Positions 9,939 through 30,117 of a stretch of DNA of 32,240 nucleotides are shown here, in pieces (the stretch's first letter is position 1; every line of letters starts with the position of its first letter). Both the position numbers and the translations under genes were made by a program. The DNA is taken from assembly GCF_009914725.1 (NCBI RefSeq), contig NZ_JAAAWJ010000020.1, positions 1-32,240 of the forward strand, given 5' to 3'. The notes under the pieces are model-generated. The model was not told where the DNA came from, did no database searches, and was given only the letters and a program-made list of their open reading frames with translations. Source of the stretch: Methanogenium sp. MK-MG (lineage in GTDB: Archaea > Halobacteriota > Methanomicrobia > Methanomicrobiales > Methanomicrobiaceae).

Positions 9939-10005
9939 TCGTATTTTATTGTGTCTGTCTCACATAGAGTTCATCAGGGCAGATTAACTTAAAAAAATAT
10001 AGTTT

Positions 10006-12053: not shown

Positions 12054-12074
12054 ACCCATCATACCATACACCAA

Positions 12075-12086
12075 TTTTTTAAAAAA
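12075..12086 (+). terminator. Oligo-T terminator candidate after gdhA
   Basis: TTTTTTAAAAAA about 20 nt after the stop codon. Confidence 0.35.
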
Positions 12087-12313
12087 TCTGTTATCTGAAC
12101 GATAACGGATTCACCTATACCTTTCCACTGCACCCACACCATCGATTCAGTTTAGCAGACATTCTTCTAATTAGTCAACATAGTAGTATGCAGTAATTTT
12201 CAAACAGAAAATGCATACCACCGGGAACACCCCGCATGGTTGCCTGAAAAATCAGTGTAGAGAAAACCGGTGTTATAACCACACACAAAAAAATGAAAAA
12301 ACGTGAATAATCT

Positions 12314-14167: not shown

Positions 14168-14363
14168 GTGAGATCTTCAGACATACGGGAACATAATCAT
14201 ACAACCCAATGATCGCCTGTTACCGGGCGATCATTGGCAATGCTGAACGGTTTCGTTTCCCCCCTCACTATTTTTTCCATTTCCTGATTTAATGAAACGA
14301 AAAGAAAAATCCCGTTTTATTGTCTTCATTACGCAAATATCCATTCCATCAACATAATACGAA

Positions 14364-14377
14364 GGAAGGAAATTTCC
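14364..14377. promoter_or_regulatory. GGAA-N6-TTCC palindrome (NrpR-type nitrogen operator consensus) in the promoter region of the glutamate synthase operon
   Basis: Sequence GGAAGGAAATTTCC lies about 130 bp upstream of the GATase start, in a 330-bp AT-rich intergenic region. Coordinates approximate. An 8-specified-base motif could occur by chance about 0.5 times in 32 kb. Confidence 0.3.
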
Positions 14378-14502
14378 ATCGATCATATGATAAAGCTATG
14401 GTATTATTTAGGATCGATCACATACAGTAGAGAGCAACCAAATCCCGGTCGGAAAAAGTTTAAATCAGATCCCACAGATCTCTAAAAAAATATGTGATAA
14501 CA

Positions 14503-15549
14503 ATGTGCGGAATAATCAGCGTCATTAACAGAAAGAAAAATCCAATGGATGGCAGAGCAGTCAGAGAAGCACTCTCCATAATGAATGAAAGGGGTAATGG
14601 CGAAGGGGCAGGATATGCTGTCTATGGAGCATTCCCGGAATTTGCGGATTACTATGCTATCCACGTATTTTATGATGATTTAATCGGGCCAAAAACAGCG
14701 GTTGAAGAAGAACTGGACAAACTGGGCACCATAACGCATGATGAAGAAATTCCAACGTTTGAACAACCCAACCTGAAAAAACGGCACATACCGTGGAGAT
14801 ATTTCTTTAAACCAAATGTCTCAGCTCTCGGTACAACGGCATCCGAAGAAGACATCTTGGTCTACCTGATGAAAAAGGTCAATACCACCATTCCCGGGGC
14901 ACTCATCTACTCCACCGGCAAAAATATTGCCATATTCAAGGCGGCTGGCTGGCCGGAGGAGGTGGCCGATTTCTATCGCATTCAGAATTATGAAGGATAT
15001 ATCTGGCTCGCCCACAACCGCTACCCGACCAATACCGCAGGCTGGTGGGGAGGTGCCCACCCGTTTAATCTGCTCGACTGGAGTGTCGTACATAACGGTG
15101 AAATCACATCATACGGGACAAACAAACGCTATCTGGAGAGCTTTGGTTACGTATGCACCATGCATACCGATACAGAAGTGGTCGCATACTTAACCGACCT
15201 CCTCCAGAGACAGCACAAACTTCCGGCAGAACTGGCGTTCAAAGCACTTGCACCCCCGTTCTGGGATGATATTGACAGAATGCCTGAAAAGGAACGGACA
15301 TTCAATACCGCTCTGAGAATGACATACAGCCCCGCCATGATGAACGGGCCGTTTGCCATTGTTGTGGCAAACTCAGCAGGCATTGCAGGAATTACTGACA
15401 GAATCAAACTCCGTCCACTTGTCGCTGCAGAAGCAGGGGACTGCCTGTATCTGTCAAGTGAAGAGGCGGCCATCCGTGTGATGGAACCATCCCCCGACCG
15501 AATCTGGATGCCACGCGCCGGAGAACCGGTCATCGGGAGGATACAATAA
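14503..15549 (+). CDS. Archaeal glutamate synthase, glutamine amidotransferase (class II, Ntn) subunit/domain
   Basis: The ORF-track start (GTG, 14494) gives MITMCGI. Class-II amidotransferases need Cys as residue 1 after Met removal, so the real start is almost certainly the ATG giving MCGIISV (14503). The stop overlaps the next gene start (TAATG). Confidence 0.85.
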   Translation: MCGIISVINRKKNPMDGRAVREALSIMNERGNGEGAGYAVYGAFPEFADYYAIHVFYDDLIGPKTAVEEELDKLGTITHDEEIPTFEQPNLKKRHIPWRYFFKPNVSALGTTASEEDILVYLMKKVNTTIPGALIYSTGKNIAIFKAAGWPEEVADFYRIQNYEGYIWLAHNRYPTNTAGWWGGAHPFNLLDWSVVHNGEITSYGTNKRYLESFGYVCTMHTDTEVVAYLTDLLQRQHKLPAELAFKALAPPFWDDIDRMPEKERTFNTALRMTYSPAMMNGPFAIVVANSAGIAGITDRIKLRPLVAAEAGDCLYLSSEEAAIRVMEPSPDRIWMPRAGEPVIGRIQ

Positions 15550-17066
15550 TGCCCGTCGGAAGCGTTCCCCCCAAGTATAAAGTAACAATTGATATGGATC
15601 TCTGCATGCTCTGTGAGCGTTGCATTGAAAACTGCCCCTACGGAACGTTCCGCCGTGAAGGCAGCAAGATCCAGATTATTTCACGTGCATGCACCGGTTG
15701 CCACCGCTGTATCGCCATGTGCCCGCGTGACGCAATCAGCCTTGAAGAGAAACCAGTCGATTACCGCTCACACCCGGTATGGTCAAGAGAGGCCCGCGAA
15801 GCCATCTATACGCAGGCACAATCGGGGAAAATTATCCTGACCGGAATGGGAAATACCCTCGATGTACCACAAATCTTTGACCGTCTCCTTCTTGATGCCT
15901 GCCAGGTCACAAATCCATCCATCGACCCGCTCCGCGAACCAATAGAACTCAGAACATATATCGGGAAAAAGCCCCGCAAGATTGAAATCAAAAAGACATC
16001 TGAGGGAGATACAGACCTTGTTACAGAACTGGCACCAAACCTGAAGTGTGAAACACCCATTATGATAGGGCACATGAGTTATGGTGCCATATCCCTCAAC
16101 GCCCAGCTTTCAATGGCACGCGGTGCATCTGAAGTGGGAACATTTATGGGCACAGGAGAAGGCGGACTGCACAAATCCCTGTACCCCTACCAAAAAAACA
16201 TGATTGTCCAGATAGCATCCGGCCGTTTTGGTGTTGACATCGATTATCTCGAACGTGGTGCGGCAATTGAAATTAAAATAGGACAGGGAGCAAAACCGGG
16301 AATCGGCGGTCACCTTCCTGGAGAAAAAGTAGACGAAGAAGTCTCAAAGACACGAATGATTCCGCTCTACAGTGATGCCATCAGCCCCGCTCCCCACCAT
16401 GACATCTATTCCATCGAGGACTTGTCCCAGCTCGTCCGAAGCCTGAAGGAGGCAACGGAATGGAAGAAACCCGTATTTGTAAAGATTGCGGCAGTCCACA
16501 ATGTCGCGGCCATTGCTGCAGGCATTGCACGATCATCTGCCGATGCCGTCGTCATTGACGGGTTCCGCGGAGGTACAGGTTCAGCACCCCGCGTATTCCG
16601 CGACCATGTCGGGATACCCATTGAAGCGGCCATCGCTGCCGTTGATGCAAAACTCAACGAACAGGGCATCAGGAATGAAGTATCAGTCATTGCATCAGGC
16701 GGTATCCGTGACAGTGCTGACGTGACAAAAGCCATCGCACTCGGTGCGGATTCAGTCTATATCGGTACAGCTGCACTGGTGTCCCTTGGATGCCGGGTAT
16801 GCGGGAGCTGTTACCGTGGTCTCTGTCCATGGGGCATTGCGACACAGCGCGAAGACCTCACCGCACGGATTGACCCTGACATCATGTATAAAAACGTGTC
16901 AAACCTGATACACGGCTGGACGCTTGAAATATCAGAACTGATGGGTGCTGCAGGCATTAACTCCATTGAAAGCCTGCGCGGAAACCGTGACCGCCTCAGG
17001 GGCTACATGCTTGATGAAAACATCCTCTCGGTCCTTGACGTGAAGACCGTCGGAGCTGATGCATGA
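15549..17066 (+). CDS. gltB: Archaeal glutamate synthase FMN-binding core (GltB central domain) with N-terminal 2x[4Fe-4S] ferredoxin domain
   Basis: Two CxxCxxCxxxCP motifs (CMLCERCIENCP, CTGCHRCIAMCP). A TIM-barrel FMN/3Fe-4S GltS core follows (GAISLNAQLSMARGA...IKIGQGAKPGIGGHLPG...SPAPHHDIYSIEDL) with a C-terminal Cys cluster CRVCGSC...C. It is translationally coupled to both neighbours. Confidence 0.9.
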   Translation: MPVGSVPPKYKVTIDMDLCMLCERCIENCPYGTFRREGSKIQIISRACTGCHRCIAMCPRDAISLEEKPVDYRSHPVWSREAREAIYTQAQSGKIILTGMGNTLDVPQIFDRLLLDACQVTNPSIDPLREPIELRTYIGKKPRKIEIKKTSEGDTDLVTELAPNLKCETPIMIGHMSYGAISLNAQLSMARGASEVGTFMGTGEGGLHKSLYPYQKNMIVQIASGRFGVDIDYLERGAAIEIKIGQGAKPGIGGHLPGEKVDEEVSKTRMIPLYSDAISPAPHHDIYSIEDLSQLVRSLKEATEWKKPVFVKIAAVHNVAAIAAGIARSSADAVVIDGFRGGTGSAPRVFRDHVGIPIEAAIAAVDAKLNEQGIRNEVSVIASGGIRDSADVTKAIALGADSVYIGTAALVSLGCRVCGSCYRGLCPWGIATQREDLTARIDPDIMYKNVSNLIHGWTLEISELMGAAGINSIESLRGNRDRLRGYMLDENILSVLDVKTVGADA

Positions 17067-17812
17067 TGGAAAAGACCCGGACAATCGATGCAAAAGGCAT
17101 GCACTACACCCCCCTCAACAAGGAGATACGTGCAGCAGTAAAGGATGGTATAACAGAAATAATTCTTGATCATATCAATGGCCAGCGGTTTATCGGAGAC
17201 GGCCTCCGTGGCGAGGATGTACGCATCATCATCAATGGCGTGCCCGGCGGTGACCTCTGCATGTTTATGTCAGGCCCGACCTGTATTGTGCATGCAAACG
17301 CCGAACACGCTCCCGGAAACACCATGGACAGCGGTACAATTTACATCCACGGAACCGCAGGCGATGCGGTTGCCCATTCCATGCGTGGCGGAGAGGTGTA
17401 TGTGCGTGACAGCATCGGATACCGTGGCGGCATCCACATGAAGGAGTATAAGGATAAATGTCCGGTCGTTGTCGTAGGCGAATATGCCCGGGCATTTCTG
17501 GGAGAGTATATGGCCGGAGGTATTATCATTGTCCTTGGACGTGGGAAGCAGCCCCCTGTTGATGAACGGGGAGTGGGAACAGGCATCCACGGGGGGGAAC
17601 TCTACATACGGGGAGAGGTGCCCGACCACCTCCTGGGCATCGGTGCAGAGAAAAAACCCTTTACGGAAGCTGACCGACAAAAAATCCGGCCGTATATTGA
17701 AAAATACTGTAGGGAGTTTGGTGTGGATGAGCCGGAACTGTTCAGTGATGAGTATGTACATATCGGGCCTTCCAGTGCCCGGCCGTTTGCAGGAAAATAT
17801 TGCTGGGAGTGA
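17063..17812 (+). CDS. Archaeal glutamate synthase GXGXG-motif (GltB C-terminal beta-helix) subunit
   Basis: Repeated G-x-G motifs (IHGTAGDAVAHSMRGGEVYVRDSIGYRGG...GEYMAGGIIIVLG) typical of the GltS alpha-subunit C-terminal domain and FwdC-like fold. Its ATG overlaps the stop of the FMN subunit. Confidence 0.85.
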   Translation: MMEKTRTIDAKGMHYTPLNKEIRAAVKDGITEIILDHINGQRFIGDGLRGEDVRIIINGVPGGDLCMFMSGPTCIVHANAEHAPGNTMDSGTIYIHGTAGDAVAHSMRGGEVYVRDSIGYRGGIHMKEYKDKCPVVVVGEYARAFLGEYMAGGIIIVLGRGKQPPVDERGVGTGIHGGELYIRGEVPDHLLGIGAEKKPFTEADRQKIRPYIEKYCREFGVDEPELFSDEYVHIGPSSARPFAGKYCWE

Positions 17813-17820
17813 GAAATAAA

Positions 17821-18858
17821 ATGCCAGAGAAAAATTATGAGAACCTGAAAGAAGAGGTCTGGGACACAGGCATCTGTTCAGGGTGTGGTGCCTGCGTTGC
17901 TGTCTGCCCGGCAGACGCCATCATATTCACCCATGATGAAAACGGAGACTCCCCCGTCCAGACAGGTTATTGCAAGGAAGTAACAGACAGTGTGCCATGC
18001 GGGGCGTGTTACGCCGTCTGCCCGCGAACCGCGACGCAAGATAAATTCCGGGTGGAAAAGACCGGTCTGGGCGAATACAGAGATATCTTTGCTGCCCACG
18101 CGGGATTTGCGGTAGAGAAACGACAGAGCGGTGGCGCAGTAACGGCAATTCTGGTAAACGCCCTTGAGGAAGGACTCATTGATGCAGTAGTAACCGTGAC
18201 CGCAGACCCGTGGACACAGAGACCGCAGTCAGTTGTGATCACACAGACGGAGGCATTGGTCGCAACGGCAGGCAGCAGATATGCCTGGTGGGTGCCCACT
18301 CTGGCAGCGCTGAAATCCGCGGTGATTACACAGAAGATGGAACATATCGCCATCGTCGGCGTTCCCTGTGCCGTCTCTGCAGCGCGGATGATGAAGACGT
18401 CAGACCATGACCTGCTCAGACCTTTCGGCAGAGCCATTCGCCTGATCGTCGGGCTCTTCTGTACGGAAACATTCGACTATGAGATGCTCATCAGGGATAA
18501 AATAATGCGTGAGCTGGCAATTGAGCCCTGGCAGATATCAACACTGGATGTGCGGGGTAAACTGATCATCGAATGCACAGACAATACAGTCAGAGAAATA
18601 CCCCTGCCTGACCTTGAAGACTGCGTGCGAAGAGGATGCCAGGCATGCGGGGATTTGACCGCAGTTGATGCTGACATATCTGCAGGTTCAGTCGGAAGCC
18701 CGGACGGCGAAACGACCCTCATCGTCAGGACTCCTGCAGGAGTTGGATTTATTGATCATGCACTACAGACCGAAAGACTGATCATTGAAACAGATGCATG
18801 CAGTCTTGATGGCATCATACATCTGTCACAGAAAAAATCAGAACGAATCCACAAATAA
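17821..18858 (+). CDS. Coenzyme F420 hydrogenase/dehydrogenase beta-subunit family protein (FrhB/FpoF-like) with N-terminal 4Fe-4S ferredoxin motif; probable F420H2 input module for glutamate synthase
   Basis: The ORF-track start (TTG, 17800) overlaps the upstream gene. The ATG at 17821 (MPEKNY...), 9 nt after the upstream stop with GGAGTGA about 8 nt ahead, is the likelier start. Motifs CSGCGACVAVCP and CGACYAVCP, then the FrhB N- and C-domains (IFAAHAGFAVEKRQSGGAVTAIL...VGVPCAVSAARMM...GLFCTETF). Confidence 0.8.
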   Translation: MPEKNYENLKEEVWDTGICSGCGACVAVCPADAIIFTHDENGDSPVQTGYCKEVTDSVPCGACYAVCPRTATQDKFRVEKTGLGEYRDIFAAHAGFAVEKRQSGGAVTAILVNALEEGLIDAVVTVTADPWTQRPQSVVITQTEALVATAGSRYAWWVPTLAALKSAVITQKMEHIAIVGVPCAVSAARMMKTSDHDLLRPFGRAIRLIVGLFCTETFDYEMLIRDKIMRELAIEPWQISTLDVRGKLIIECTDNTVREIPLPDLEDCVRRGCQACGDLTAVDADISAGSVGSPDGETTLIVRTPAGVGFIDHALQTERLIIETDACSLDGIIHLSQKKSERIHK

Positions 18859-18968
18859 TCTGTTTTGTATGAGAATCCAAATTAAGAAATACATATTTTT
18901 CCGGACGATGAAATTATACAGTATCATACTATGGATTACCCCGTATCAACCAGAGGTCTGACGATACT

Positions 18969-19715
18969 ATGGAACAACTAAAATTTGTCAATCATCGCAT
19001 CGATGAATATGCCCTTCAGGTAACATACGATCCGGCAACCGACAGCGGCAAAGTGATCTTTAATCTCACCCTGATTAAAGAGGAAGACCGCAGTTATGCG
19101 GTTGATATCATTCACCAGTCCCATAAAGCGGGCATCTGCGTCAGTGACCGTATGCTCATCGCTGACGCGGGTGAACAGATTGGGGAGAGGACAATACCAA
19201 AGGGATACTGCGGCATTGTAACGATGTGCAGCATCACCCTCGATGCAATACTGCTGAGAAACGGCATTCCGATCAATCCCATTGGCGGAGGTCTGCTGGA
19301 GATCAAAGATCACGTGCCCCGCAGGTTTACCTCTCTGATACGCTACGATGCAACAACCATCGATCCGACGCAGGTGATGATCGACCATGGCTCCACCGGC
19401 ATCAGCGGAGTTATTCAGTTTGGGAAAGGCAGCATCCTTGCAAATATACGGGAATCACATATGGAGGCAGAACCGCTCCTCTTTGAAATTCTGGACCTGT
19501 TTGGAACGGTGGGCTTTACCGGCATTCTGGACGTGGGTAGTCCAAACAGATCCATGTTTGGCGTCCCCGTCACAACGAACTATCAGGGCATTGTGATGAT
19601 CGGTGGAGCAAATCCGGTGGCGGCATTTATCGAATCGGGAAGGTGGGCGGAGACGACCGCGATGAAGGGGCTGATTCCGGTGTCAAGGCTGGTTCACATC
19701 GACGATATTGAGTAG
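18969..19715 (+). CDS. Conserved hypothetical protein (248 aa), encoded immediately downstream of the glutamate synthase genes
   Basis: No motif recognised with certainty. Soluble, Gly-rich core (NPIGGGLLEI, HGSTGISGVIQFGKGS). From genomic context only, an NrpR-type regulatory domain (DUF128) or a GOGAT accessory role are possibilities. Confidence 0.4.
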   Translation: MEQLKFVNHRIDEYALQVTYDPATDSGKVIFNLTLIKEEDRSYAVDIIHQSHKAGICVSDRMLIADAGEQIGERTIPKGYCGIVTMCSITLDAILLRNGIPINPIGGGLLEIKDHVPRRFTSLIRYDATTIDPTQVMIDHGSTGISGVIQFGKGSILANIRESHMEAEPLLFEILDLFGTVGFTGILDVGSPNRSMFGVPVTTNYQGIVMIGGANPVAAFIESGRWAETTAMKGLIPVSRLVHIDDIE

Positions 19716-19872: not shown

Positions 19873-21957
19873 TTATTTGATAATATATTCATTCTGCCAC
19901 ATATCAATCATTGATGACCACAACCGTTCAACCCGCTCATAGGTTTCTTCGCCATCCTCAAGCATCTCAACAGCACGGATATTTTTGCTTAACATTGTAT
20001 GGACGCGTTCGGGTGCAGACGCCTTATCAAAAAGGTCATCCAACGCCCGCATCTTATCCAGAAGCAGATCATATTTCCGCTGACTACAGCACTGATCGAT
20101 ATCACGGATATGGGTGAATGCATGCAGGAGAACACGCGTCGTATTGGGATCAAAGGATCGTTTCAGAACATTTTCAGTCAGGCTTTCCGCATTTTCCGGA
20201 TTTGTTGTCAGGGCTGTCTTATAGTTCTGCACATCACAGGCAAAGGTAAACTGTTTCTCTGGAATTTCAATGGATTCAAAACCCTCAGCAACAAATCGCC
20301 CGGCAATTCTTAGATCAGTATTGCAGGCCTTTGAATAGATTTTGATGTAGAGTCTCAGTGAACCATCACGCGGAATGACAACACCGTCATGACGGGAAAA
20401 ACCAAAGTGGAATGACTTCACCCAGGGTTTTTCTATATCGATAGAATCATCCACGCTCACATAGGTGTCCCTGTTTTCAATAACGATCTCAGAAATCCCC
20501 GCAGCCTTACCCATCTCAAGGGAAATCCCCCATTCGTCAACGGGCTTGTCCAGACAGTTTTTGAGGCAAATAACATACCAGTACGAGGAAGGATCATGGG
20601 TCAGGATCCACTGCTGCACATTCGGTAAATTGCGCTTCGAGGAGAGGAGGAAACCGGTCGTTACCGGATCGAAGATTGTGCGTACTATAAGGAGAGATTC
20701 ATCCATATTGGAATGAAGAACCTTTCTTTCATCGGGGGAAGATCTTTCTGATGAAAACCCACGGGATATTTTTTCAGAAATCTCAGCCTTTAATTGTTGA
20801 GCCCTGCTATTGTCTGGATCCAATTCAAGTGTTTTTGCACAGCAGGTTTGAGCCTCTTCGTATCGTTGCAGACTAAAAAGGATCTTTCCTTTATTATACC
20901 ATAGATCCACTTCATCAGGATCAAGCTTGATAGCCTGATAATATGCATCAAGCGCCTCATCAAATTCATCTAGACTAAAAAAGGCATCTCCTTTATGCTT
21001 CCAGAAACGTGAGTCAGTAGGATCAAGATCAATCGCATGGCAATAAGCATCAAGTGCATCATCATATCGCTGCAAAAAACACATGAAGAAATTTCCTTTC
21101 GTATCCCATCGATCAGCATTATTTGGATCAAGAGTGATCATATGATCATAAGCATCAAGTAACTCATCATATCGCTCTAATTCTAACAGAGCAAGTCCCT
21201 TGTGAGCCCATATATCCACGTCATTAGGATCCAATTTAATCGCCAGGTCATATGTTTCGAGCCCCTCATCATATCGACCCAATTCACATAGAGTAGAGCC
21301 CTTGTTAGCCCATGTATTCATTTCATTAGGATCAAGAACGATCGCATGGTTATAGGCATCAAGTGCCTCATCGTATCTACCTAGAGTCTGCAGGGCAAAT
21401 CCTCTGTTAGCCCATAGATTCGCATCATTAGGATCAAAATCAATTGCACATTGATAGGCATCAAGCGCTTTATCAAATTGTTCTAAATCATAATAGACAT
21501 GTCCTCTGCAAATCCATTTCTCCGCATCATCAGGATCAATCTCAATTGCCTGAGTATATGCTTCAAGTGCCTCATCATATCGTTGAAGCTCAGACAGTGC
21601 AATTCCAATATTTTGCCATGCAGTTGCATTATCGGGATCAATCTCTGTGGCCTGATCATATGCTTCGAGGGCCTCTTCATATAGTTCCAGTCCAGTCAGA
21701 GCATTTCCTCTGCAAATCCATTTCTCCGCATCTTCAGGATCGAGCTCAATCGCCTGATCATATGCTTCGAGGGCTTCTTCATATAGTTCCAGTCCAGTCA
21801 GAGCATTTCCTCTGCAAATCCATTTCTCCGCATCTTCAGGATCGAGCTCAATCGCCTGATTAAATGCTTCAAGTGCCTCATCATATCGTTGAAGCTCATA
21901 CAGATCATCACCTTTGCCAATCCACTTTTTTGCTTTTATTGCCCCTAAAAATCCCAT
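19873..21957 (-). CDS. TPR-repeat protein (about 11 N-terminal TPR units) with about 310-aa C-terminal domain of unknown function; last gene of the Vps4-like operon
   Basis: N-terminal half is built of 34-aa units (ELYEEALEAYDQAIELDPEDAEKWICRGNALTGL and variants); two units are 100% identical. The C-terminal 310 aa are non-repetitive with no recognised domain. The ATG overlaps the stop of the upstream AAA ATPase (TAATG). Confidence 0.8.
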   Translation of the reverse strand: MGFLGAIKAKKWIGKGDDLYELQRYDEALEAFNQAIELDPEDAEKWICRGNALTGLELYEEALEAYDQAIELDPEDAEKWICRGNALTGLELYEEALEAYDQATEIDPDNATAWQNIGIALSELQRYDEALEAYTQAIEIDPDDAEKWICRGHVYYDLEQFDKALDAYQCAIDFDPNDANLWANRGFALQTLGRYDEALDAYNHAIVLDPNEMNTWANKGSTLCELGRYDEGLETYDLAIKLDPNDVDIWAHKGLALLELERYDELLDAYDHMITLDPNNADRWDTKGNFFMCFLQRYDDALDAYCHAIDLDPTDSRFWKHKGDAFFSLDEFDEALDAYYQAIKLDPDEVDLWYNKGKILFSLQRYEEAQTCCAKTLELDPDNSRAQQLKAEISEKISRGFSSERSSPDERKVLHSNMDESLLIVRTIFDPVTTGFLLSSKRNLPNVQQWILTHDPSSYWYVICLKNCLDKPVDEWGISLEMGKAAGISEIVIENRDTYVSVDDSIDIEKPWVKSFHFGFSRHDGVVIPRDGSLRLYIKIYSKACNTDLRIAGRFVAEGFESIEIPEKQFTFACDVQNYKTALTTNPENAESLTENVLKRSFDPNTTRVLLHAFTHIRDIDQCCSQRKYDLLLDKMRALDDLFDKASAPERVHTMLSKNIRAVEMLEDGEETYERVERLWSSMIDMWQNEYIIK
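21658..21861. repeat. Two near-perfect tandem copies of a 102-bp unit (one TPR repeat) inside the TPR gene; further diverged copies extend about 21490-21900
   Basis: Unit ATATGCTTCGAGGGC(C/T)TCTTCATATAGTTCCAGTCCAGTCAGAGCATTTCCTCTGCAAATCCATTTCTCCGCATCTTCAGGATCGAGCTCAATCGCCTGATC is repeated head-to-tail with a single mismatch. Confidence 0.8.
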
Positions 21958-23192
21958 TAAAATCCAGCCTCTCCATATTCATTATTCCAATTCATATAAC
22001 GCTCAAGATCCTCTTTTCGCACCGGTGACCGTATCTTCTCAAATGCCTCGTCAAAATCAGTGGCACAGAGATCTCTTGTCAAAAGCACCCGCTCTTTGAG
22101 TTCATCAAACGGAAGGTCTGCAAGCTCATCCATACGGGGATTCTCCTCATGAATCATCGTCCATATCGCCTGCTGGCAGAGATTCTGAACGTCTCTGCCC
22201 GAATACAACTGTTCCACACAACATTCTGCAAGGGCAGCAGCATCAAGCTGAACAGTTCCAAGACCTACCGTATGGAGCCGGATGATAGCCTCACACGACA
22301 CAGCATCCGGAAGCGTCACATAAATCCGCCGGGGGAACCGTGAGAGAACCGCCGGGTCAAGATCCCATGGCGTGTTTGTCGCTGCCATGGTGAGAAGAAG
22401 CCGATCGGCCTTTTTATCCTGCAGGCCATCCATCTCTGTAAGAAGTGAGGAGAGAAGTTTCCGCGTAGCTTCACTCGTGCCCTCTCCTCTGGCAGAACCC
22501 AGAGCATCAAACTCGTCGATAAAAACAATGGACGGAGCCTCACTTCGGGCAGAGTCATAGAGCGAGGCAACCAGTTTTGATGACTCTCCAAAATACTTTG
22601 AGAGGACACGGTCAGCCTTCACATCATAGAACGTGGCATGCAGGCTTCCTGCCGCTGCGGCAGCAATCATCGTCTTTCCCGTTCCGGGCGGGCCAAAAAG
22701 AAGAATTCCTTTCCATGGCCGGATGGCGTCCGGTTTTTTCAGACCAGAAATCACTACGGTCTCTTTTACCAGACGTTTCACTTCATCCAGACCACCAATA
22801 TCATCCCACCGGACGGATGAGGACGATATCAGGGACGATGCATCAAAGGAACCATCCGTTTCATCCGGAGACACACGATTTTCTGGATTTTGCCTAGGTT
22901 TTACGCCGGGTTTCTGTCCGGATGTCTGTCGGGAATTGTGTGCTGATGAACTCCCCCTTTTTTCTGCTGAAACAGGTATTTCTCCCGATGCAATGGCACC
23001 CCACCTCTCTGCATCAGAGAGATATTTTTTCCGCAAAGAAGGCATCTGCTCAGCAAGCTGACGGCTCAGAACAGCACAGGCATGCGCTTTTTCACGAACA
23101 GTTGCATTGTCATTTTTCCCTCTTGCTGTCTGAAACTCCTGTATCGTTTTTTTCAGTTCTGTTGCAAGAAATCCACTGAGATCCACGGTCAT
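21957..23192 (-). CDS. Vps4/katanin/spastin-clade ('meiotic clade') AAA+ ATPase with MIT-like N-terminal helical domain and Vps4-type C-terminal helix
   Basis: Walker A GPPGTGKT and Walker B IVFIDEFDAL. The second region of homology ATNTPWDLDPAVLSRFPRRIYVTLP matches Vps4 [25 protein letters not shown]. The C-terminal DLERYMNWNNEYGEAGF matches the Vps4 C-terminal helix motif (DL.KY..W...FG.EG). An about 75-aa alpha-helical N-terminus is followed by a Ser/Pro/basic linker, as in MIT-linker-AAA proteins. GTGATGAT Shine-Dalgarno. Confidence 0.85.
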   Translation of the reverse strand: MTVDLSGFLATELKKTIQEFQTARGKNDNATVREKAHACAVLSRQLAEQMPSLRKKYLSDAERWGAIASGEIPVSAEKRGSSSAHNSRQTSGQKPGVKPRQNPENRVSPDETDGSFDASSLISSSSVRWDDIGGLDEVKRLVKETVVISGLKKPDAIRPWKGILLFGPPGTGKTMIAAAAAGSLHATFYDVKADRVLSKYFGESSKLVASLYDSARSEAPSIVFIDEFDALGSARGEGTSEATRKLLSSLLTEMDGLQDKKADRLLLTMAATNTPWDLDPAVLSRFPRRIYVTLPDAVSCEAIIRLHTVGLGTVQLDAAALAECCVEQLYSGRDVQNLCQQAIWTMIHEENPRMDELADLPFDELKERVLLTRDLCATDFDEAFEKIRSPVRKEDLERYMNWNNEYGEAGF

Positions 23193-23200: not shown

Positions 23201-25072
23201 TTATTCCATTGTTTTGACAAGGATCATTTCCTTCGATATTTCTGCCATATTCTCAAATTCCTCTGGAATTCCCTCAATTTCCTGCTTGAGATAATATTCA
23301 AGAATGCCCCTCTGTTTCTGCACATCAGACAGAATTGACCCTGAGACCAAATGTTCCAGATGAACAACCGATTTACAAGCATTTTGGAGCTCATTCCGGT
23401 GTAACTCATCTACATACCCTTTTGCGATAAAATACGCCGTCTGATAATCACTTTTTGACGACTGTGTGGGAACGGGACGTGATGAATCAAATTTTTTCAG
23501 AACATCACCAGCGATACCACCAATGGAGCGTTGTTTCCAATTTTTCTCATTGTGATAAAAGACATGGACTTTGTGCTGATCGTTGTAGCAGGTTTTCAGC
23601 AGATCTTTTGCTCCATTCCGGGTGAATGTCTTAGAAAGACCTGCATCAACCCACCTTCCGATAGCCCAGACTGAAGCCCCCCGTACACGATTTCTTTTGG
23701 AACCAATACCAGTAATGAGAATCCGTTCCAAATCCTTGTTCTCAAGAAAAGATTTGTCAGTAACTGTTGAAAGTTCACCAATGATTGAAATTGCTGCCTT
23801 GCGAATTTCAGGGTTTCTGCTTTGAGCACATAGCTTAAGATCGGTAATCAGCATATCAATTTCGCACAGGCTGTTCGAATATCCACGGCTTGCTACAGAC
23901 CAAAGGGCCCACAGATTTTTTTCCCGAACAGAAGTTTCTCCATCCATGATATGACGGGCAAGTGCCACAATCCCGTTTTCGCGGACAAGTGGTTCGGGGC
24001 TTGCATAGAAGGAGACTTTATCCAGAGCAAAAGCGGCCATTTCACGAACTTCTGCATTAGGATCATCTAACAGTCTGATGCAGGGACTAACCATACCTGT
24101 CTCAGCTACATGTATACCCTGCCCGGACTCTGCAAGAACTGCCAGCGACCATGCTGCCGCACTTCGTACATCCTCCGACGGGTCATGAAGACAATCAACA
24201 AGACGGCATAATATTTCTGATTCAGCCACCTCATGTGAGTAGCTATTGCAGGCAAGGTTTCCAAGAGCCCACAAAATATTCTGTCGCACATCTGGAACCG
24301 GATCCTGCAGTGAGCGTTCAAACAGTGAAAACGGTCTTTGTCTGATAATCTGGCCTGCAAGATTATTTTTCACACAACGATCCAACGAATCTGATGCATC
24401 TGCCCGTTCCTGATTTGTTCCTGTTGAAAGGAGATGCATAAAATGTGCAATATCAACCTGATCTGGAGCGACATAAATCCGGCAATTCAGTTTTTTGTGG
24501 TTTAAAGAATCCTGAATTTCAGTCGAATCCAAATGTGTAAGCGAAAGGGCCTTATCATACCTTTTAAGGGCGTCATTGTACGAGCCACGATCAGAGAAGA
24601 TGTCCCCTTCCAGAATATCAGGGAATACAAAAGACGGACGCATTTGTATCACTTCTTCGGCCAAGCGGAACGCCTGGTCTTTCTTACCAGTTTCGTACAG
24701 GCAGTGTGCTTTTCCGTTGAGAGCCCAGGGATGCCTTTTTATCTTAATTGCCCGGTTATATTCAGTAAGGGCCTTTGGAATTAATTTTTGTTTGAAAAAA
24801 ATGTCACCTTTCCCAATATGGGGAAAAGGGTAGGAAGATTTGTCAAGAAAAATGGCATGATCATAACACTTTATTGCCTCCTCATATCGGCCAAGCCTCC
24901 GGAGTGAACTCCCCTTCCAATTCCATGCTACATACGATTGTGGATCAAATGTTATTGCTTTTTCAAAGAATTTTAATGCATCACGATATTGCCCGGATTT
25001 GTATTGTGAATGGCCCTTGTCCATATTGTTTTGATATTTTGAATGAGTATCCGTCTTCTTAAAAAACATCAC
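23201..25072 (-). CDS. TPR + HEAT (PBS-lyase type) repeat protein
   Basis: N-terminal TPR units (YRDALKFFEKAITFDPQSYVAWNWKGSSLRRLGRYEEAIKCYDHAIFLD...). Central HEAT-like repeats follow with recurring D/NPxxxVRxxAxxALG pattern (PDVRQNILWALGNL, PSEDVRSAAAWSLAVL, PNAEVREMAAFALDKV, TSVREKNLWALWSV, NPEIRKAAISIIGEL, RNRVRGASVWAIGRW). Its stop lies 8 nt before the AAA ATPase start. Confidence 0.75.
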   Translation of the reverse strand: MMFFKKTDTHSKYQNNMDKGHSQYKSGQYRDALKFFEKAITFDPQSYVAWNWKGSSLRRLGRYEEAIKCYDHAIFLDKSSYPFPHIGKGDIFFKQKLIPKALTEYNRAIKIKRHPWALNGKAHCLYETGKKDQAFRLAEEVIQMRPSFVFPDILEGDIFSDRGSYNDALKRYDKALSLTHLDSTEIQDSLNHKKLNCRIYVAPDQVDIAHFMHLLSTGTNQERADASDSLDRCVKNNLAGQIIRQRPFSLFERSLQDPVPDVRQNILWALGNLACNSYSHEVAESEILCRLVDCLHDPSEDVRSAAAWSLAVLAESGQGIHVAETGMVSPCIRLLDDPNAEVREMAAFALDKVSFYASPEPLVRENGIVALARHIMDGETSVREKNLWALWSVASRGYSNSLCEIDMLITDLKLCAQSRNPEIRKAAISIIGELSTVTDKSFLENKDLERILITGIGSKRNRVRGASVWAIGRWVDAGLSKTFTRNGAKDLLKTCYNDQHKVHVFYHNEKNWKQRSIGGIAGDVLKKFDSSRPVPTQSSKSDYQTAYFIAKGYVDELHRNELQNACKSVVHLEHLVSGSILSDVQKQRGILEYYLKQEIEGIPEEFENMAEISKEMILVKTME

Positions 25073-25587
25073 ACACCCCCCAGAAACACCTTAAGTTCCT
25101 CATCAATCCGTCCTGCCACAAACGAAACCACATCACCAAAACCACTTACATAGATTGTTACCTTCGTCTTACCTGAATCTTTTCCCCATACCAGGCCAAT
25201 TTCTGCCTGACCTTTCCGGGTATATGCAGTATAGGATTCCACGCCATCACGGGTGCCCTCGATACTGGCATTTATTTTATTCAGGATGTATCGCAAAAAC
25301 TGCCGGACTGTTTCGCACTCCATCCCTGTTTCATACTGCAGTGTTTGTGAAATCTCCTCTACTTCCGGAGCACATTCTTCTGCAGTGTACATACGCACAC
25401 TCTCGGTGCCCCTGTCCAGTCGTGCATAGAGATCATGCAAAAAATCTTCAATACCATCATCACTGACCCGGATGACAACACCTTTCTCTTTGCGCACGTC
25501 TTTTTTGCTTTTCCAGCGGTCAATGGTGGCATCAATCCGTTTGCGTTCGGCATCAGAGTGATAATCCACAACAAGGAGATATTCCAT
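25069..25587 (-). CDS. Hypothetical protein (172 aa), first gene of the TPR/HEAT-Vps4-like operon
   Basis: ATGA start/stop overlap with the downstream TPR/HEAT gene. A TATA-like element sits about 30 bp upstream, suggesting a leaderless transcript. No recognised domain. A superficial Cas2-like N-terminus (LLVVDY..D..RR) was not supported further. Confidence 0.45.
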   Translation of the reverse strand: MEYLLVVDYHSDAERKRIDATIDRWKSKKDVRKEKGVVIRVSDDGIEDFLHDLYARLDRGTESVRMYTAEECAPEVEEISQTLQYETGMECETVRQFLRYILNKINASIEGTRDGVESYTAYTRKGQAEIGLVWGKDSGKTKVTIYVSGFGDVVSFVAGRIDEELKVFLGGV

Positions 25588-25727: not shown

Positions 25728-26330
25728 ATGGGAATTATAGACCGATTTCGAAGAAACCCAATTGGAAAATTAAAAATCTCTGAACTGCAGGAAGAAGAAT
25801 TCAAGCTGAAAAGCCGTATCAATCGACTTCGCAAAGAAATTGACCGGATTGAACGCGACAAAAAGGAAAAATTTGGAGAAGGTGTTGGAGCGGATCTCAT
25901 TAAAAAGAAGATGCTGGCACAGGAACTCAAGCAGATGGACATGGCGGCCAAACTCAAAATTCGCAACTTTATATCATTGCACAAGCAGTATATGTTCATC
26001 TCGAATCTTGTAGTGATCAAGAAATATCAGCGTGACCTCCAGAAGACACAGGTTTGGGAAAAGATTCAGGGAATTTCACCTGATGCTTTTGAAAGTTCAC
26101 TTATTCAGGTAAACCTTGCAGGCAAAGGATTCGAAAACGTTGTTGATGACCTGAACCAGATCTTCACGCTGGACATTGCAGATTCAGACAATGATCTTGA
26201 TGAATCCGAAAAGCAGATGTTTGAAATCTGGAGCAGTGTTGAGACAGGATCTCTTGACCTTGAAGAAGCAGGCGGACTCTTCTCCGTAGAAAAGGACCTT
26301 GAGAAGGCCATTGCAGAATCTGATAATTAA
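25728..26330 (+). CDS. ESCRT-III/Snf7-like protein (PspA/ESCRT-III superfamily), paralog 1
   Basis: 200 aa, predicted all-helical. Basic N-terminal half, acidic C-terminal half. MGIIDRFRRNP start. ADLIKKKMLAQELKQMD corresponds to the Snf7-family ALKRKKRYEKQLAQID helix. KKYQRDLQKTQVWEKIQGISPDAFESSL corresponds to AKAMKAAHDNMDIDKVDELMQDI. The acidic tail DIADSDNDLDESE corresponds to EEFDEDELMAELEE. Comparison is from memory of CHMP4/Snf7 and PspA sequences. Confidence 0.55.
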   Translation: MGIIDRFRRNPIGKLKISELQEEEFKLKSRINRLRKEIDRIERDKKEKFGEGVGADLIKKKMLAQELKQMDMAAKLKIRNFISLHKQYMFISNLVVIKKYQRDLQKTQVWEKIQGISPDAFESSLIQVNLAGKGFENVVDDLNQIFTLDIADSDNDLDESEKQMFEIWSSVETGSLDLEEAGGLFSVEKDLEKAIAESDN

Positions 26331-26348: not shown

Positions 26349-26951
26349 ATGAGTATCTTTTCCAGACTCCATGCAAGAAATCCTTTAGATTCGATGAAAC
26401 TGGGGGATCTAAGGAAGGCAGAAGCACAATTACGATATCAGATTCAGACTACCCTGAATGACAGATCAGCGATGGAGGAGCAGATTACTCTACTCTTTTC
26501 CGAGTCTCTGGCTATCGCTGATGATGTGGGAACAGCCATCTGTGCCATGCGGATACAGGCAATTTCAGAATCCTGGCAGTTAAAAGCCCAGACCTGTCTG
26601 AACCTTGAGCGGGATTTACAGGTGCTTTCGAATATGATTGCAATTAAAGAACAGGAGAAAACTCTTCAGCGCTCCGGTGTCTGGAAAAAGCTACAGAACA
26701 TTGACCCGGATACCCTGGAAGAATGGTTGGCAAAATCAAGTATCAGTACTGCAGGTCAAAGGGCCTTGGTAAACGAACTTTCTGAGATTACTTCTGAACA
26801 TATTTCGCAGTCCGGAACAGGTTCAGTTGATGAATCATACATCAGGTCTCTGATTTCTGAGATGCGGACGGGGAGTCTGTCTTCAGATTCTGCAGGTACA
26901 AAATTGTTCAGCAATTTGTCCTCAGAACAACTGGATGGATCATCCCATTGA
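26349..26951 (+). CDS. ESCRT-III/Snf7-like protein (PspA/ESCRT-III superfamily), diverged paralog 2
   Basis: Same length (200 aa) and organisation as the upstream gene. Shared blocks VWEKIQGISPDAFE/VWKKLQNIDPDTLEE, TGSLDLEEAGGLFS/TGSLSSDSAGTKLFS. N-terminus MSIFSRLHA resembles PspA/Vipp1 MGIFSRF. Starts 19 nt after paralog 1 with a GGAG Shine-Dalgarno. Confidence 0.45.
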   Translation: MSIFSRLHARNPLDSMKLGDLRKAEAQLRYQIQTTLNDRSAMEEQITLLFSESLAIADDVGTAICAMRIQAISESWQLKAQTCLNLERDLQVLSNMIAIKEQEKTLQRSGVWKKLQNIDPDTLEEWLAKSSISTAGQRALVNELSEITSEHISQSGTGSVDESYIRSLISEMRTGSLSSDSAGTKLFSNLSSEQLDGSSH

Positions 26952-27210: not shown

Positions 27211-29124
27211 ATGGGTTTTTTTGGTAAGAAAAGTGACAATGACATCCCGGCAAACAGGTCTGCCGAAGGATACAGAAGAGAGAAAACATGCCCGAAGTGT
27301 GGAACAACCCTTGAAGAAGATGTTAAATTCTGTCCTCACTGTGGAGCAAAAGTTGCGGACTTTACCTGCAACAAATGTGGAGCTTCTGTTCCAGCGGATG
27401 CAAAGTTCTGTCCCGGGTGTGGGTATGATGCACGGACATCCCGGCTTGGTAAACTGGTAGGGTCAAATCAGGAAGATTTCTCACGGAACCGTGAGTGGAT
27501 ACGAAAACCAGAGGATTTTGCCAGCCGGTTCGAAATTGAGGACCTACGCGGCATTCTCAAAAAAACGGTTACTGTTGCCGAAGGAACCCGTGCTCTGCTC
27601 TTCCAGGGCGGGGCATTTGTAGGTGATCTCAGACCCGGACATTATAATATTGGAAAATTTCTTGAGACTCATCTGCCACTGAACCTTGATGACCGTGCAT
27701 CCGTTGTGCTTGTTGACGATGGTATTATTGCCATTGATTTCTCCCTTAACAGGACACAGGTCCGCACTGCTGATTCAATCCCGGTCGGCATCAGTGGCAC
27801 GCTGACGCTCAGAAACACTGACTCAAAGAAATTCATCGACAATCTCCTGAAAGGAAAGAGCCGGATTCTTCTGAGTGATCTTCAGAATGATCTCACCTAT
27901 GACATTCAAAGCGTGGTTCATGCAACGCTAAGCAGGTACACCATGGATGAACTCTATGGGAATCTCTCAGTCAAGCAGGAGATTGAGCAGCAGGTTCAGA
28001 CACATGTTGCTCCGACACTGAACACTTACGGCTTTTCCGTAGAGCACCTCAGGTTTGTCCGGTGTGATGAAACAGACTGGAAAGACATCATTGAGAAACG
28101 TGGCACACGGACGAAAAAAGTCGCCGGGGCGGAGCTTGATATCGACACCGAGCAAAAAATCAGGCAACTCCTCTCAAATGACAGAATCAATAAACTTTCA
28201 ACCGAAGACACCGTTGAAGCCTATGTTCACGAGCTTGCAAAGGTTGGAATAATCCGCACCAATGATATCCAGGACCTGAAAATAGAACTTAACAATAACC
28301 GGGACGACAAGGAATACATCCGCTCTCTCGTCAGGGATAAGGCCCGGCAGATGCACCGCCATGAAACTGCTGATGCAGAGCTTGATCATACTTTGAGTCA
28401 GGATGATCGACAGCAGGCTCACGAAATAAAAACTGACGATGCACAAAGAGAGCACGGAGAAAAGTGGGCAGAACGTGAACATGCCCGTGATGTCAAAGAG
28501 ATGGAGAGTCTCATCGGCATCAAAAAGCAGATGAGTGAGGCAAAACTTCAGAAGCAGACCGGCGAGCAGGGACTCCAGCACAGAGACCTGGAAAAAGAGG
28601 CTGAGATTGAAGGGATTAAGCTCTCACAACGTACCAATGCGTCAGCTGAAGCACTCCTCACCATGACAGAGGGAAAGACGGCTGAACACCTGACTGAACT
28701 GGAGAAGATGAAACGTGCAGCTGTTTTGGATGCAGATCAGATTGTTGCACTCTACGCAAAAGACCCGGTTGCCGCTGCTGAGGCAATGAAACAGAAGTTT
28801 GGTTCAGCTGAAATGGAAAAAATGCACGCGGCCCGCCTTGGAGATCAGCAGGCATTCATGGAGATGATGCAGAAGAATTTCGGTGAGAATTCTGATCGTA
28901 TGGTCGATGTGATGAATCAGGCCCTTGGTGCAATGGGCAGCACGGCAACAGCACGAGGCAGTGCCCATCAGGCACAGGGTTCAACTGTCGTTGCCGGTGG
29001 AGGTATTGGCCAGCCGGTTATCGTGAACCCGGTGCAAAATGAAAATACACGGGCATGTCCTGAATGTGGAGCTGAGAACAACGCATCGGCAGGATTTTGC
29101 AAGGAATGCGGCCAGAAACTTTGA
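27211..29124 (+). CDS. Zinc-ribbon / SPFH (band-7, flotillin-like) / coiled-coil / zinc-ribbon protein
   Basis: N-terminal double zinc ribbon (CPKCGTTLEEDVKFCPHCG; CNKCGASVPADAKFCPGCG). SPFH-like core (VTVAEGTRALLFQGGAFVGDLRPGHYNI...VVLVDDGIIAIDFSLNRTQVRTADSIPVGISGTLTLRNTD...). Long E/K/Q/A-rich helical region as in flotillins/YqiK. C-terminal zinc ribbon CPECGAENNASAGFCKECG. Confidence 0.55.
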   Translation: MGFFGKKSDNDIPANRSAEGYRREKTCPKCGTTLEEDVKFCPHCGAKVADFTCNKCGASVPADAKFCPGCGYDARTSRLGKLVGSNQEDFSRNREWIRKPEDFASRFEIEDLRGILKKTVTVAEGTRALLFQGGAFVGDLRPGHYNIGKFLETHLPLNLDDRASVVLVDDGIIAIDFSLNRTQVRTADSIPVGISGTLTLRNTDSKKFIDNLLKGKSRILLSDLQNDLTYDIQSVVHATLSRYTMDELYGNLSVKQEIEQQVQTHVAPTLNTYGFSVEHLRFVRCDETDWKDIIEKRGTRTKKVAGAELDIDTEQKIRQLLSNDRINKLSTEDTVEAYVHELAKVGIIRTNDIQDLKIELNNNRDDKEYIRSLVRDKARQMHRHETADAELDHTLSQDDRQQAHEIKTDDAQREHGEKWAEREHARDVKEMESLIGIKKQMSEAKLQKQTGEQGLQHRDLEKEAEIEGIKLSQRTNASAEALLTMTEGKTAEHLTELEKMKRAAVLDADQIVALYAKDPVAAAEAMKQKFGSAEMEKMHAARLGDQQAFMEMMQKNFGENSDRMVDVMNQALGAMGSTATARGSAHQAQGSTVVAGGGIGQPVIVNPVQNENTRACPECGAENNASAGFCKECGQKL

Positions 29125-29208: not shown

Positions 29209-30117
29209 ATGTTTGGAGATGGAGACCTTACCTGTATTGAAAATCTGCTGAAACCGGCAGAGATCATCATTGACAGTGGCACCGGAATTTCAAGAAGATC
29301 GTATGAGGAAAGAGTCAGACTCTGGAATGAAGTTCGCAGTAACTATTCACGGTTTGAAAACCGTGAGTGTGGATCTTTTGACAAAACGCTTGACCTGCAC
29401 TTCCGTTCAAAGTTTGAGGCATCCCTTCTCACTCTTGCAACAAGTTTTCGCAGAAACAGAGAAGATCCTGTTGAAGCCAACACCTTCACTGAAGACGAAC
29501 TGTTGCTGTATGAACTCATTGAACGGTATCACGTTCTCCCTTCAAAGAAGGAACTGATGACCGTTCTTCTCTCAGGTGAAGGGAAAGGATCTGAATTTTT
29601 GAATGTGCACTACCGCTACATCGATGGTATGATACTAGATGCCTGCAAACGGCCCGGTGCTGCCAATCCATATCTTCTCCATTTTCTGAAGAGCAGATGG
29701 AACAAATATGACAAACGCCTGCAGGATGTTGTAACAAGTGCCATCGAAAATAACGGTCTCCGATGGTTTGTCACATTTATCGGGGATGGAAACAAGCGTG
29801 CAGAGCAGATAGTCTACAACATATCCGGAGGTTCAGTGAATCTTGGCAACGGTGTGCAGGTTGTTGACAGTATCCTGAGTCGTGCCGGGATTACCAATGA
29901 AAATGCCAGTGATTCAATTTTCCCGAGTGAAAGGAAAGGTTCACCGGGTGGCGTACAGGTGCAGGACAGTGTGGTAAACAGGTCGACATTTGGAGATACT
30001 GGCAATGGAGATGCCCGGACAAAGAGTTCCGAAAGATTTTGTGCGGCATGTGGAACCAGGTTACCTGATGGTGCACAGTTTTGCACTGATTGTGGTAACC
30101 GCGTGGAATTCGAATGA
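29209..30117 (+). CDS. Hypothetical protein with C-terminal zinc-ribbon (CAACGTRLPDGAQFCTDCGNRV)
   Basis: 302 aa. No recognised N-terminal domain. The C-terminal C-x2-CG-x7-FC-x2-CG ribbon is the same type as in the upstream SPFH protein. Confidence 0.45.
   Translation: MFGDGDLTCIENLLKPAEIIIDSGTGISRRSYEERVRLWNEVRSNYSRFENRECGSFDKTLDLHFRSKFEASLLTLATSFRRNREDPVEANTFTEDELLLYELIERYHVLPSKKELMTVLLSGEGKGSEFLNVHYRYIDGMILDACKRPGAANPYLLHFLKSRWNKYDKRLQDVVTSAIENNGLRWFVTFIGDGNKRAEQIVYNISGGSVNLGNGVQVVDSILSRAGITNENASDSIFPSERKGSPGGVQVQDSVVNRSTFGDTGNGDARTKSSERFCAACGTRLPDGAQFCTDCGNRVEFE

Follow-up and report, generated by a model that had tools for sequence, protein, structure and literature searches.

A Methanogenium gene cluster for a Vps4-type AAA ATPase and two Snf7-family proteins, a probable member of the 'Main' clade of euryarchaeal ESCRT-like systems

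Among the archaeal systems that resemble the endosomal sorting complexes that are required for transport (ESCRT), the 'Main' clade of euryarchaeal ESCRT was described by Makarova et al. 2024 (mBio, PMC10936438) as comprising the AAA ATPase Vps4 (arCOG01307), Snf7-family proteins (arCOG09747 and arCOG09749), arCOG08177 and arCOG09748. In this clade arCOG09748 carries a C-terminal winged helix, and a Ser/Thr kinase and a PP2C phosphatase are often, but not universally, present. The clade covers Thermococcales, Methanococcales, Methanomicrobiales, Halobacteriales and other archaea, and Vps4 was recognized in the same survey by an N-terminal MIT domain and by ESCRT component genes in the neighbourhood. 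According to some reviews, Euryarchaeota such as Thermococcales have Vps4 homologs and no ESCRT-III. Here we describe a gene for a Vps4-family AAA ATPase of the arCOG01307 type in Methanogenium sp. MK-MG. It is located on contig NZ_JAAAWJ010000020.1, of which the analysed stretch of 32,240 nucleotides is called the window below. The gene occupies positions 21957..23192 on the minus strand and encodes a protein of 411 amino acids (aa) with Pfam AAA and Vps4_C domains. We consider it probable that this protein is the Vps4-type ATPase of an ESCRT-like system of the 'Main' clade.

The window resembles the 'Main' clade loci in possessing Vps4, both Snf7-family paralogs and arCOG08177, arranged as in the locus of Methanosarcina sp. 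MTP4. The orthologs of arCOG09747, arCOG09749 and arCOG08177 are all encoded less than 4 kb from the ATPase gene. The MTP4 locus (L003), which we retrieved independently, matched Table S2 of PMC10936438 one to one, with genomic Vps4 coordinates 760920-762170. In this locus the table assigns arCOG09748 (WP_048177850) to 5078-7024, arCOG08177 (WP_048177849) to 7183-7716, arCOG09747 (WP_048177848) to 8110-8721, arCOG09749 (WP_048177847) to 8791-9390 and Vps4 (WP_048177845) to 10001-11251. In the tree order of Table S1, Methanocalculus, Methanosarcina MTP4, Methanoplanus limicola, Methanocorpusculum and Thermococcales are neighbours, and the orthologs of MTP4 and Thermococcus (T.) zilligii are named Vps4 in Tables S1 and S2 (PMC10936438). 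Since this arrangement and the MTP4 locus are already published, the system is a known one to which the window adds a further member. The window differs from the described clade in that its arCOG09748 relative is short and has a Zn ribbon but no detected winged helix. It also has a Zn-ribbon/SPFH protein, whereas SPFH proteins that combine a coiled coil with a Zn ribbon were reported as components of the 'Meth_adaptin' ESCRT clade (PMC10936438). Furthermore, the Vps4 operon holds large genes for a TPR/HEAT protein and for a TPR protein with a C-terminal domain, and no kinase or phosphatase gene is found in the contig.

The 411-aa open reading frame is real, and all the peptides quoted from it in a first-pass annotation of the window are present. 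The description of its product as a Vps4-like ATPase in that annotation is supported by the Vps4_C match, by a second region of homology (SRH) without PG insertion, by a three-helix bundle model of the N-terminus and by orthology to the published Vps4 set. In Pfam searches a single AAA module (aa 163-293, 127 bits) was followed by Vps4_C (aa 364-407, 29.5 bits against a gathering score of 21.3). In Methanomicrobiales, Methanosarcina, Archaeoglobus, Thermococcus and Methanomassiliicoccales the family is kept at full length, N-terminus included, at 52-87% identity. The closest named relatives are from Methanocalculus and Methanoplanus. The ATPase of Methanoplanus endosymbiosus is 67% identical to the window protein, that of Methanosarcina sp. 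MTP4 (WP_048177845) 53% over the full length, and T. zilligii Vps4 52%. An exhaustive representative search gave mostly multi-domain AAA proteins, the scores of which are additive; of the single-domain relatives, the nearest had Vps4_C and no Pfam MIT.

Yeast Vps4, of which the query sequence was checked at 437/437 positions against PDB 5uie_A, was aligned by BLASTP with the window ATPase at 33% identity (aa 114-410 against 117-436, E 5e-54), through the terminal YGEAG/FGQEG. In a rough neighbour-joining tree, a split of D1 and D2 of Asgard Cdc48 from yeast Vps4, the family and the single-domain proteins nearest to it was recovered in 98 of 100 bootstraps; with yeast Vps4 and Asgard Cdc48 D1/D2 as its only labelled references, this tree does not place the family within the clade. 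Features of the meiotic clade present in the protein are the single classical AAA module and the intact Walker A, Walker B and sensor-1 motifs. We conclude that this is a genuine methanogen gene for a Vps4-type ATPase.

These proteins carry public names that look misleading. At NCBI the window ATPase is called '26S protease regulatory subunit' and its MTP4 ortholog 'Cell division protein FtsH', and the arCOG09747-type Snf7-family protein described below carries the name 'chromosome assembly protein'. The search for relatives also gave a 599-aa protein (P0254) that is 52% identical over aa 112-408, has Vps4_C and carries a DisA-type diadenylate cyclase (DAC) domain as a C-terminal fusion. A c-di-AMP synthase is an unusual fusion partner for a Vps4-like AAA protein. 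Contigs binned as Paludibacter, Bacteroidales and Cloacimonetes (P0070, P0080, P0195, P0197) encode a Vps4 that is 55-56%, or a Snf7-family protein that is 70-71%, identical to those of the window. In the Paludibacter case the longest contig recorded for the Vps4 and that for the Snf7-family protein are equally long (5,765 bp), which suggests one shared contig. These are most likely mis-binned methanogen contigs, the alternative being transfer to bacteria.

The large AAA subdomain (aa 121-296; 22305..22832, minus strand) was delineated from invariant residues in the family alignment and from the alignment with yeast Vps4. Invariant in the family are Walker A (G167-T174), Walker B (D226-E227), sensor-1 (N273), pore loop 1 (K199-Y200-F201-G202) and the SRH segment S284-R285-F286-P287-R288-R289, as are Y399, W402 and G407 of the terminal helix. 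Pore loop 2 in this subdomain reads RGEGTSEATRK. As in eukaryotic Vps4, to which the identity of 33% extends over the AAA module and the C-terminal helix, pore loop 1 is aromatic-hydrophobic (KYF vs KWM), pore loop 2 is nearly identical (RGEGxSEAxR) and the SRH has no PG insertion. In the HMMER alignment the SRH reads avl..srf against LLraGRF of VAT, thus lacking two residues, and it aligns without gaps with RRRF of yeast Vps4. The SRH of Cdc48, PAN and FtsH carries the 'PG' insertion (RPGRF), and the two-residue deletion is typical of the meiotic clade.

The small helical (lid) subdomain with the extra C-terminal helix (aa 297-411; 21960..22304, minus strand) contains the Vps4_C match and is without a long beta-domain insert. 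About 27 gap positions of the window ATPase stand opposite the beta-domain of yeast Vps4 (residues 355-400). In Vps4 this insert of the lid binds Vta1/LIP5. Because it is absent, the protein is not filed as a eukaryotic-type Vps4, from which it is further set apart by a serine at the position of R288 and by an MIT-like domain that is unseen by Pfam. The protein ends in GEAGF and has neither a C-terminal HbYX motif nor a coiled-coil/OB N-domain.

For the N-terminus (aa 1-70; 22983..23192, minus strand) an AlphaFold2 (AF2) model made from 41 sequences predicted an MIT-like three-helix bundle with helices at 5-25, 29-49 and 51-69 and a predicted local distance difference test score (pLDDT) of 80. 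Among similar-size structures the top Foldseek superposition was that on the MIT domain of Sulfolobus solfataricus Vps4 (2v6y; template modelling (TM) score 0.70/0.72, root-mean-square deviation 1.7 Å), with an E-value of 2.7 that is not significant. For 2w2u the TM score was 0.63, E-values ranging from 1 to 3. The bundle is followed by a low-complexity linker of variable length (aa 71-120; 22833..22982, minus strand), which is the sole poorly aligned, length-variable stretch in the family alignment. The predicted fold is thus compatible with MIT, although MIT identity is not proven.

The conserved partners of the ATPase, missed by the first-pass annotation, are two adjacent Snf7-family genes on the plus strand. 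The first (25728..26330) encodes an ESCRT-III-like protein of 200 aa of the arCOG09747 type, 52% identical to WP_048177848 of MTP4 (arCOG09747, 'Snf7 family protein'). The second (26349..26951) encodes a paralog of 200 aa of the arCOG09749 type with 29% identity to WP_048177847 of MTP4 (arCOG09749). The two proteins are 28% identical to each other, and BLASTP identities to their counterparts in Methanoplanus endosymbiosus (L001), MTP4 (L003) and T. zilligii (L004) are 47-75% for the arCOG09747 type and 26-39% for the arCOG09749 type. Neither matched a Pfam family at E ≤ 0.01. The AF2 model of the arCOG09747-type protein has helices at 17-52, 57-105, 118-150, 157-173 and 187-199, with a pLDDT of 85-91 in the hairpin. 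This arrangement, in which a long hairpin precedes shorter helices and a tail that is acidic and flexible, agrees with the ESCRT-III/Snf7 architecture, and about 18 of the top 50 Foldseek matches of the model were ESCRT-III, CdvB, CHMP or Vipp1 structures. With a joint profile of both paralog families the top natural PDB match was CdvB of S. islandicus, at a borderline E-value of 0.056. At the end of the arCOG09747 type there is a short amphipathic helix that is conserved (LSxEKDIEKxLE), and the Snf7-family proteins of this locus have no winged helix.

Two transcription units diverge from a 140-bp intergenic region. The minus-strand unit has the order arCOG08177 - (TPR/HEAT) - Vps4 - (TPR), and the plus-strand unit the order Snf7a - Snf7b - SPFH/Zn-ribbon - arCOG09748-like. 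A scan of the window with bacterial promoter and terminator models, which do not apply to archaea, gave no better results than shuffled sequences. The first gene of the minus-strand operon (25069..25587) encodes an arCOG08177-type ESCRT component of 172 aa, with 42% full-length identity to WP_048177849 of MTP4 (arCOG08177) and 39-89% to the genes at the same position in L001, L003, L004 and the Methanomicrobiales-type loci L085 and L087. By HHpred, arCOG08177 consists of an inactivated Cas2-like domain and a TBP-fold/DUF3568 domain (PMC10936438). In the window protein Pfam gave no match and neither domain was detected, so the claim about its fold rests on those published HHpred results.

The neighbourhoods of eight complete loci and two cut contexts were compared by BLASTP. 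The eight loci are from Methanogenium, Methanoplanus, a Methanoculleus-like contig, Methanosarcina, Thermococcus and metagenomes. In every locus with enough flanking sequence (8/8) the Snf7-family pair adjoins Vps4, and an arCOG08177 ortholog was confirmed in six of the eight. A further constant neighbour is a protein with about 190 N-terminal aa that match those of the window protein at 29209-30117; the repeat proteins are not among the constant neighbours. Ser/Thr kinases and PP2C phosphatases are frequent in the compared loci (L001, L003, L004, L088 and L090). TIR-domain genes occur beside two homologous Vps4/Snf7 loci, at 7154-8473, 15561-18170 and 18273-19193 of L089 and at 2557-3267 of L090. 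They include a TIR-methyltransferase fusion, a TIR with LRR, a ThsB-like TIR and a TIR_2, and one is located between the cluster kinases in a Methanomassiliicoccales contig. Their position may be due to chance or to a link with defence or signalling.

The crenarchaeal CdvC/CdvB system shares with the window an ATPase with an MIT-like bundle, modelled in the window protein, a linker, a single AAA module and a C-terminal helix, and without a long beta-domain, which is encoded beside ESCRT-III-type genes. It differs in that the window has no CdvA and that the NCBIfam CdvC model gives the window ATPase 175 bits against a cut-off of 650.

The other two genes of the ATPase operon encode large repeat proteins. 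The gene at 23201..25072 (minus strand), 8 nt upstream of the ATPase gene, encodes a 623-aa protein with N-terminal TPR followed by HEAT/ARM repeats (Pfam TPR_1 and HEAT). The gene at 19873..21957 (minus strand), the start of which overlaps the ATPase stop, encodes a 694-aa protein with about 11 TPR repeats (Pfam TPR) and a 300-aa non-TPR C-terminal domain for which no family match was found. The stop/start overlaps of the ATPase gene with both, proposed in the first-pass annotation as TAATG and ATGA, were found on one side. TAATG is indeed shared with the downstream TPR gene, but the stop codon TAA of the TPR/HEAT gene is separated by 8 nt from the ATG of the ATPase and does not overlap it. 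The other overlap (GTGA/TGATG rather than ATGA) is that of the 172-aa gene with the TPR/HEAT gene, one gene further upstream.

The repeat proteins recur in part of the loci. Including the window, orthologs of the large TPR/HEAT protein occur in four Methanomicrobiales loci, and the TPR protein encoded downstream is conserved in three; in six other loci no TPR/HEAT ortholog was seen. TPR/HEAT orthologs are encoded directly upstream of Vps4 in L085 (61% identity, full length), L087 (48%, full length) and L086, another Methanomicrobiales-type locus (65% over the C-terminal part, the gene being cut by the contig end). The 694-aa TPR protein has a full-length ortholog in L087 (38%) at the opposite end of the cluster. 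Its L085 counterpart is split, and there a gene for 192 aa shortly downstream of Vps4 corresponds to aa 502-692 with 80% identity. No ortholog of either large repeat protein was seen in Methanoplanus endosymbiosus, T. zilligii, L088, L089 or L090. In Methanosarcina MTP4 the likeness is at the level of TPR repeats only, to TPR genes of 113, 116 and 352 aa that flank Vps4; these genes are listed in the 2024 tables and not flagged as components (PMC10936438). As other Vps4 loci lack them, the large repeat proteins are plausibly lineage-specific accessories of some Methanomicrobiales and not replacements of ESCRT-III.

Several observations weigh against the assignment to the 'Main' clade ESCRT-like system. 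In the ATPase, the SRH was initially described as nearly superimposable on that of Vps4, which holds for its gapless alignment and for Arg285, equivalent to yeast Arg289, but not for Ser284, which stands opposite yeast Arg288 and is invariant in 16 family members. The terminal helix, described as specific for Vps4, does match Vps4_C, but katanin, fidgetin-like 1 and spastin, without Vps4, were the sole PDB matches of the C-terminal 115 aa at E ≤ 0.01, so that this helix marks the whole meiotic clade and not Vps4 alone. The lid of katanin type and the retention of just one SRH arginine remain as deviations. The proposed MIT-linker-AAA architecture is reproduced in the modelled three-helix bundle, the linker and the AAA module, but profiling of the N-terminus against MIT found none: Pfam MIT matched 0 of 41 N-termini (E ≤ 10) and a PDB profile search gave no MIT. 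Other three-helix bundles, of the ribosomal protein S20 type, also reach TM scores of about 0.6 against the N-terminus.

The same holds for the partner genes. Pfam Snf7 or PspA_IM30 matched none of 15 members of the 200-aa proteins (E ≤ 10), hhalign of these proteins against an unverified yeast Snf7 sequence was negative, and the Foldseek E-values for the arCOG09747-type model were all near 1, none being significant. Because the Snf7 and PspA profiles give no match, membership of the Snf7 superfamily rests on the arCOG annotation and the fold. No winged helix was found in the arCOG09748-like protein of the window, and no kinase or phosphatase gene is present within the 32-kb contig, which ends 87 bp past its last gene. 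Euryarchaeal ESCRT-like systems, this clade included, are known from comparative genomics alone, and for T. kodakarensis, which has three Vps4 homologs, a review reports as an unpublished result that vesicle production was unchanged when any one of them was disrupted (PMC10117752).

Three other explanations of the locus were weighed. The first-pass annotation had proposed that the TPR/HEAT and TPR proteins are obligate partners of the ATPase, as adaptors or substrates, in place of canonical ESCRT components. The close packing of their genes in the operon, with the TAATG overlap, the 8-nt spacer and the GTGA/TGATG overlap, fits this proposal, as does the TPR/HEAT ortholog directly upstream of Vps4 in L085, L086 and L087. 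Small TPR genes flank Vps4 in Methanosarcina MTP4 as well, and TPR and HEAT genes occur in the published neighbourhoods of Methanocaldococcus, Methanotorris and Halomicrobium (PMC10936438). However, with the Snf7-family pair and the arCOG08177 gene beside the ATPase, no ESCRT component is replaced by the repeat proteins. Moreover, the large TPR/HEAT protein is missing in the Methanoplanus endosymbiosus, Thermococcus, L088, L089 and L090 loci, and in the 2024 survey TPR genes are not marked as belonging to the system (PMC10936438). The proposal is therefore unlikely, and a role that is both obligate and a replacement is refuted by the loci without these genes.

It is still less probable that the ATPase is a severing enzyme like katanin, spastin or fidgetin acting on a cytoskeletal polymer such as FtsZ, CetZ or a tubulin-like protein. 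Katanin and spastin also have N-terminal MIT-type bundles. The best single-domain PDB match of the ATPase is katanin p60 (188 bits, aa 123-409; VAT D2 gives 155 bits), and the matches of the C-terminal 115 aa described above are all to this group, with which the protein shares the lid and C-terminal helix (YxxWNxxFG-type motif). Unlike these enzymes, it has Snf7-family and not cytoskeletal genomic partners, in a prokaryotic host; none of the 10 neighbourhoods contains a cytoskeletal gene, the constant neighbours being the Snf7-family pair, and its orthologs are included in the published Vps4 tree (PMC10936438). The least probable explanation, to which we give hardly any weight, is a generic unfoldase or proteasome activator that is encoded beside repeat proteins by chance. 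The NCBI name would agree with it, and so would the similar NCBIfam scores for CDC48 (185 bits), CdvC (175) and PAN (172), all far under the cut-offs, and the identity of the trimmed AAA core to Asgard Cdc48 D2 (36.7%), which equals that to yeast Vps4 (36.4%). The missing coiled-coil/OB N-domain and HbYX motif, the presence of Vps4_C, the SRH without PG insertion and the conservation of the gene cluster across orders argue against such a function. An anti-phage defence role was rejected, PADLOC having returned only generic AAA (IetA, TRIP13) and generic repeat matches.

We thus favour a Vps4-type ATPase of the 'Main' clade ESCRT-like system. The analysis showed directly how the domains are arranged, which catalytic and pore residues are invariant, how the operon is built and that the gene partnership is conserved. 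A mechanism can be proposed by analogy to the biochemistry of Vps4 and CdvC. The ATPase would form a hexamer, and its MIT-like bundle would dock on the flexible acidic C-terminal tails of both Snf7-family proteins. The pore loops (K199-Y200-F201 and RGEGTSEATRK) could then thread Snf7 subunits in an ATP-dependent manner, by which Snf7 co-polymers on the membrane would be remodelled or disassembled. The TPR/HEAT protein and the TPR protein with its C-terminal domain probably serve the ATPase as scaffolds or adaptors, recruiting cargo or regulators to it. Division in Methanomicrobiales is FtsZ-based. A role in cytokinesis is therefore unlikely, unlike for CdvC/CdvB, and the output is likely to be vesicle formation, protein sorting or membrane repair. 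Makarova et al. likewise inferred a non-cytokinetic output of these kinds (PMC10936438).

A more tentative idea, which we regard as possible but doubtful, is that some Methanomicrobiales have a distinct ESCRT variant. In such a variant a TPR-HEAT scaffold would be placed between arCOG08177 and Vps4, the TPR and Zn-ribbon/SPFH proteins would have joined the system and the winged helix of arCOG09748 would have been lost. The repeat proteins would then be true Vps4 cofactors or cargo adaptors, analogous to Vta1/LIP5 or to ESCRT-0/I-type adaptors. If this is correct, the repeat-protein cofactors of Methanomicrobiales would be something that the 2024 survey did not describe. The locus in any case offers a clean and compact Methanomicrobiales example of the euryarchaeal ESCRT-like system, and the recurring TPR/HEAT scaffold and TPR protein are candidate Vps4 cofactors, a modest addition to the published description. 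It corrects the public protein names and leaves the current picture of ESCRT evolution unchanged.

The remaining two genes of the plus-strand unit encode Zn-ribbon proteins. The gene at 27211..29124 (plus strand) encodes a 637-aa protein with the order Zn ribbon, SPFH/Band_7, coiled coil and Zn ribbon (Pfam Zn_Ribbon_1, DZR and Band_7), which has orthologs in L001, L085 and L087 with 58-73% identity. The short arCOG09748 relative at 29209..30117 (plus strand) has an N-terminal helical domain of about 190 aa and a C-terminal Zn ribbon (Zn_Ribbon_1 at aa 277-298). Homology to arCOG09748 proteins is confined to its N-terminal 190-200 aa, which are 36% identical to the N-terminus of the protein at L003 5078-7024 (WP_048177850) and 33% to that of the protein at L004 2254-3993. 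The short form (294-333 aa) is also found at L001 15851-16852, L085 204-1121 and L087 2500-3384. It is without the coiled coil, central domain and winged helix of the 580-650-aa Methanosarcina and Thermococcus forms, and it is accompanied by the Zn-ribbon/SPFH protein, to which part of that role may have passed.

The 694-aa TPR gene contains arrays of a 102-bp (34-aa) repeat, with 3.9 copies (78% match) at window positions 21498-21890 and 4.1 copies (67%) at 21013-21437. Adjacent TPR units are nearly identical, ELDPEDAEKWICRGNALTGLELYEEALEAYDQA occurring twice, which points to recent internal duplication. Pfam MIT scored 27.2 bits on this protein (aa 121-139), just below the cut-off of 30, which most likely reflects the general likeness of MIT and TPR helices, curious as it is beside a Vps4 gene.

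The last gene before the contig end (30477..32153, plus strand) encodes an NHL beta-propeller protein with 6 repeats (Pfam NHL), of which the membership of the cluster is uncertain. In other loci beta-propellers are fused to the cluster Ser/Thr kinases. Upstream of the cluster a nitrogen-assimilation block at 10806-19715 includes genes for glutamate dehydrogenase (10806-12053) and an NrpR-type nitrogen regulator (18969-19715). Open reading frames at 14494-18858 looked glutamate-synthase-like by eye only, with no family search. This block is probably unrelated to the ESCRT cluster.

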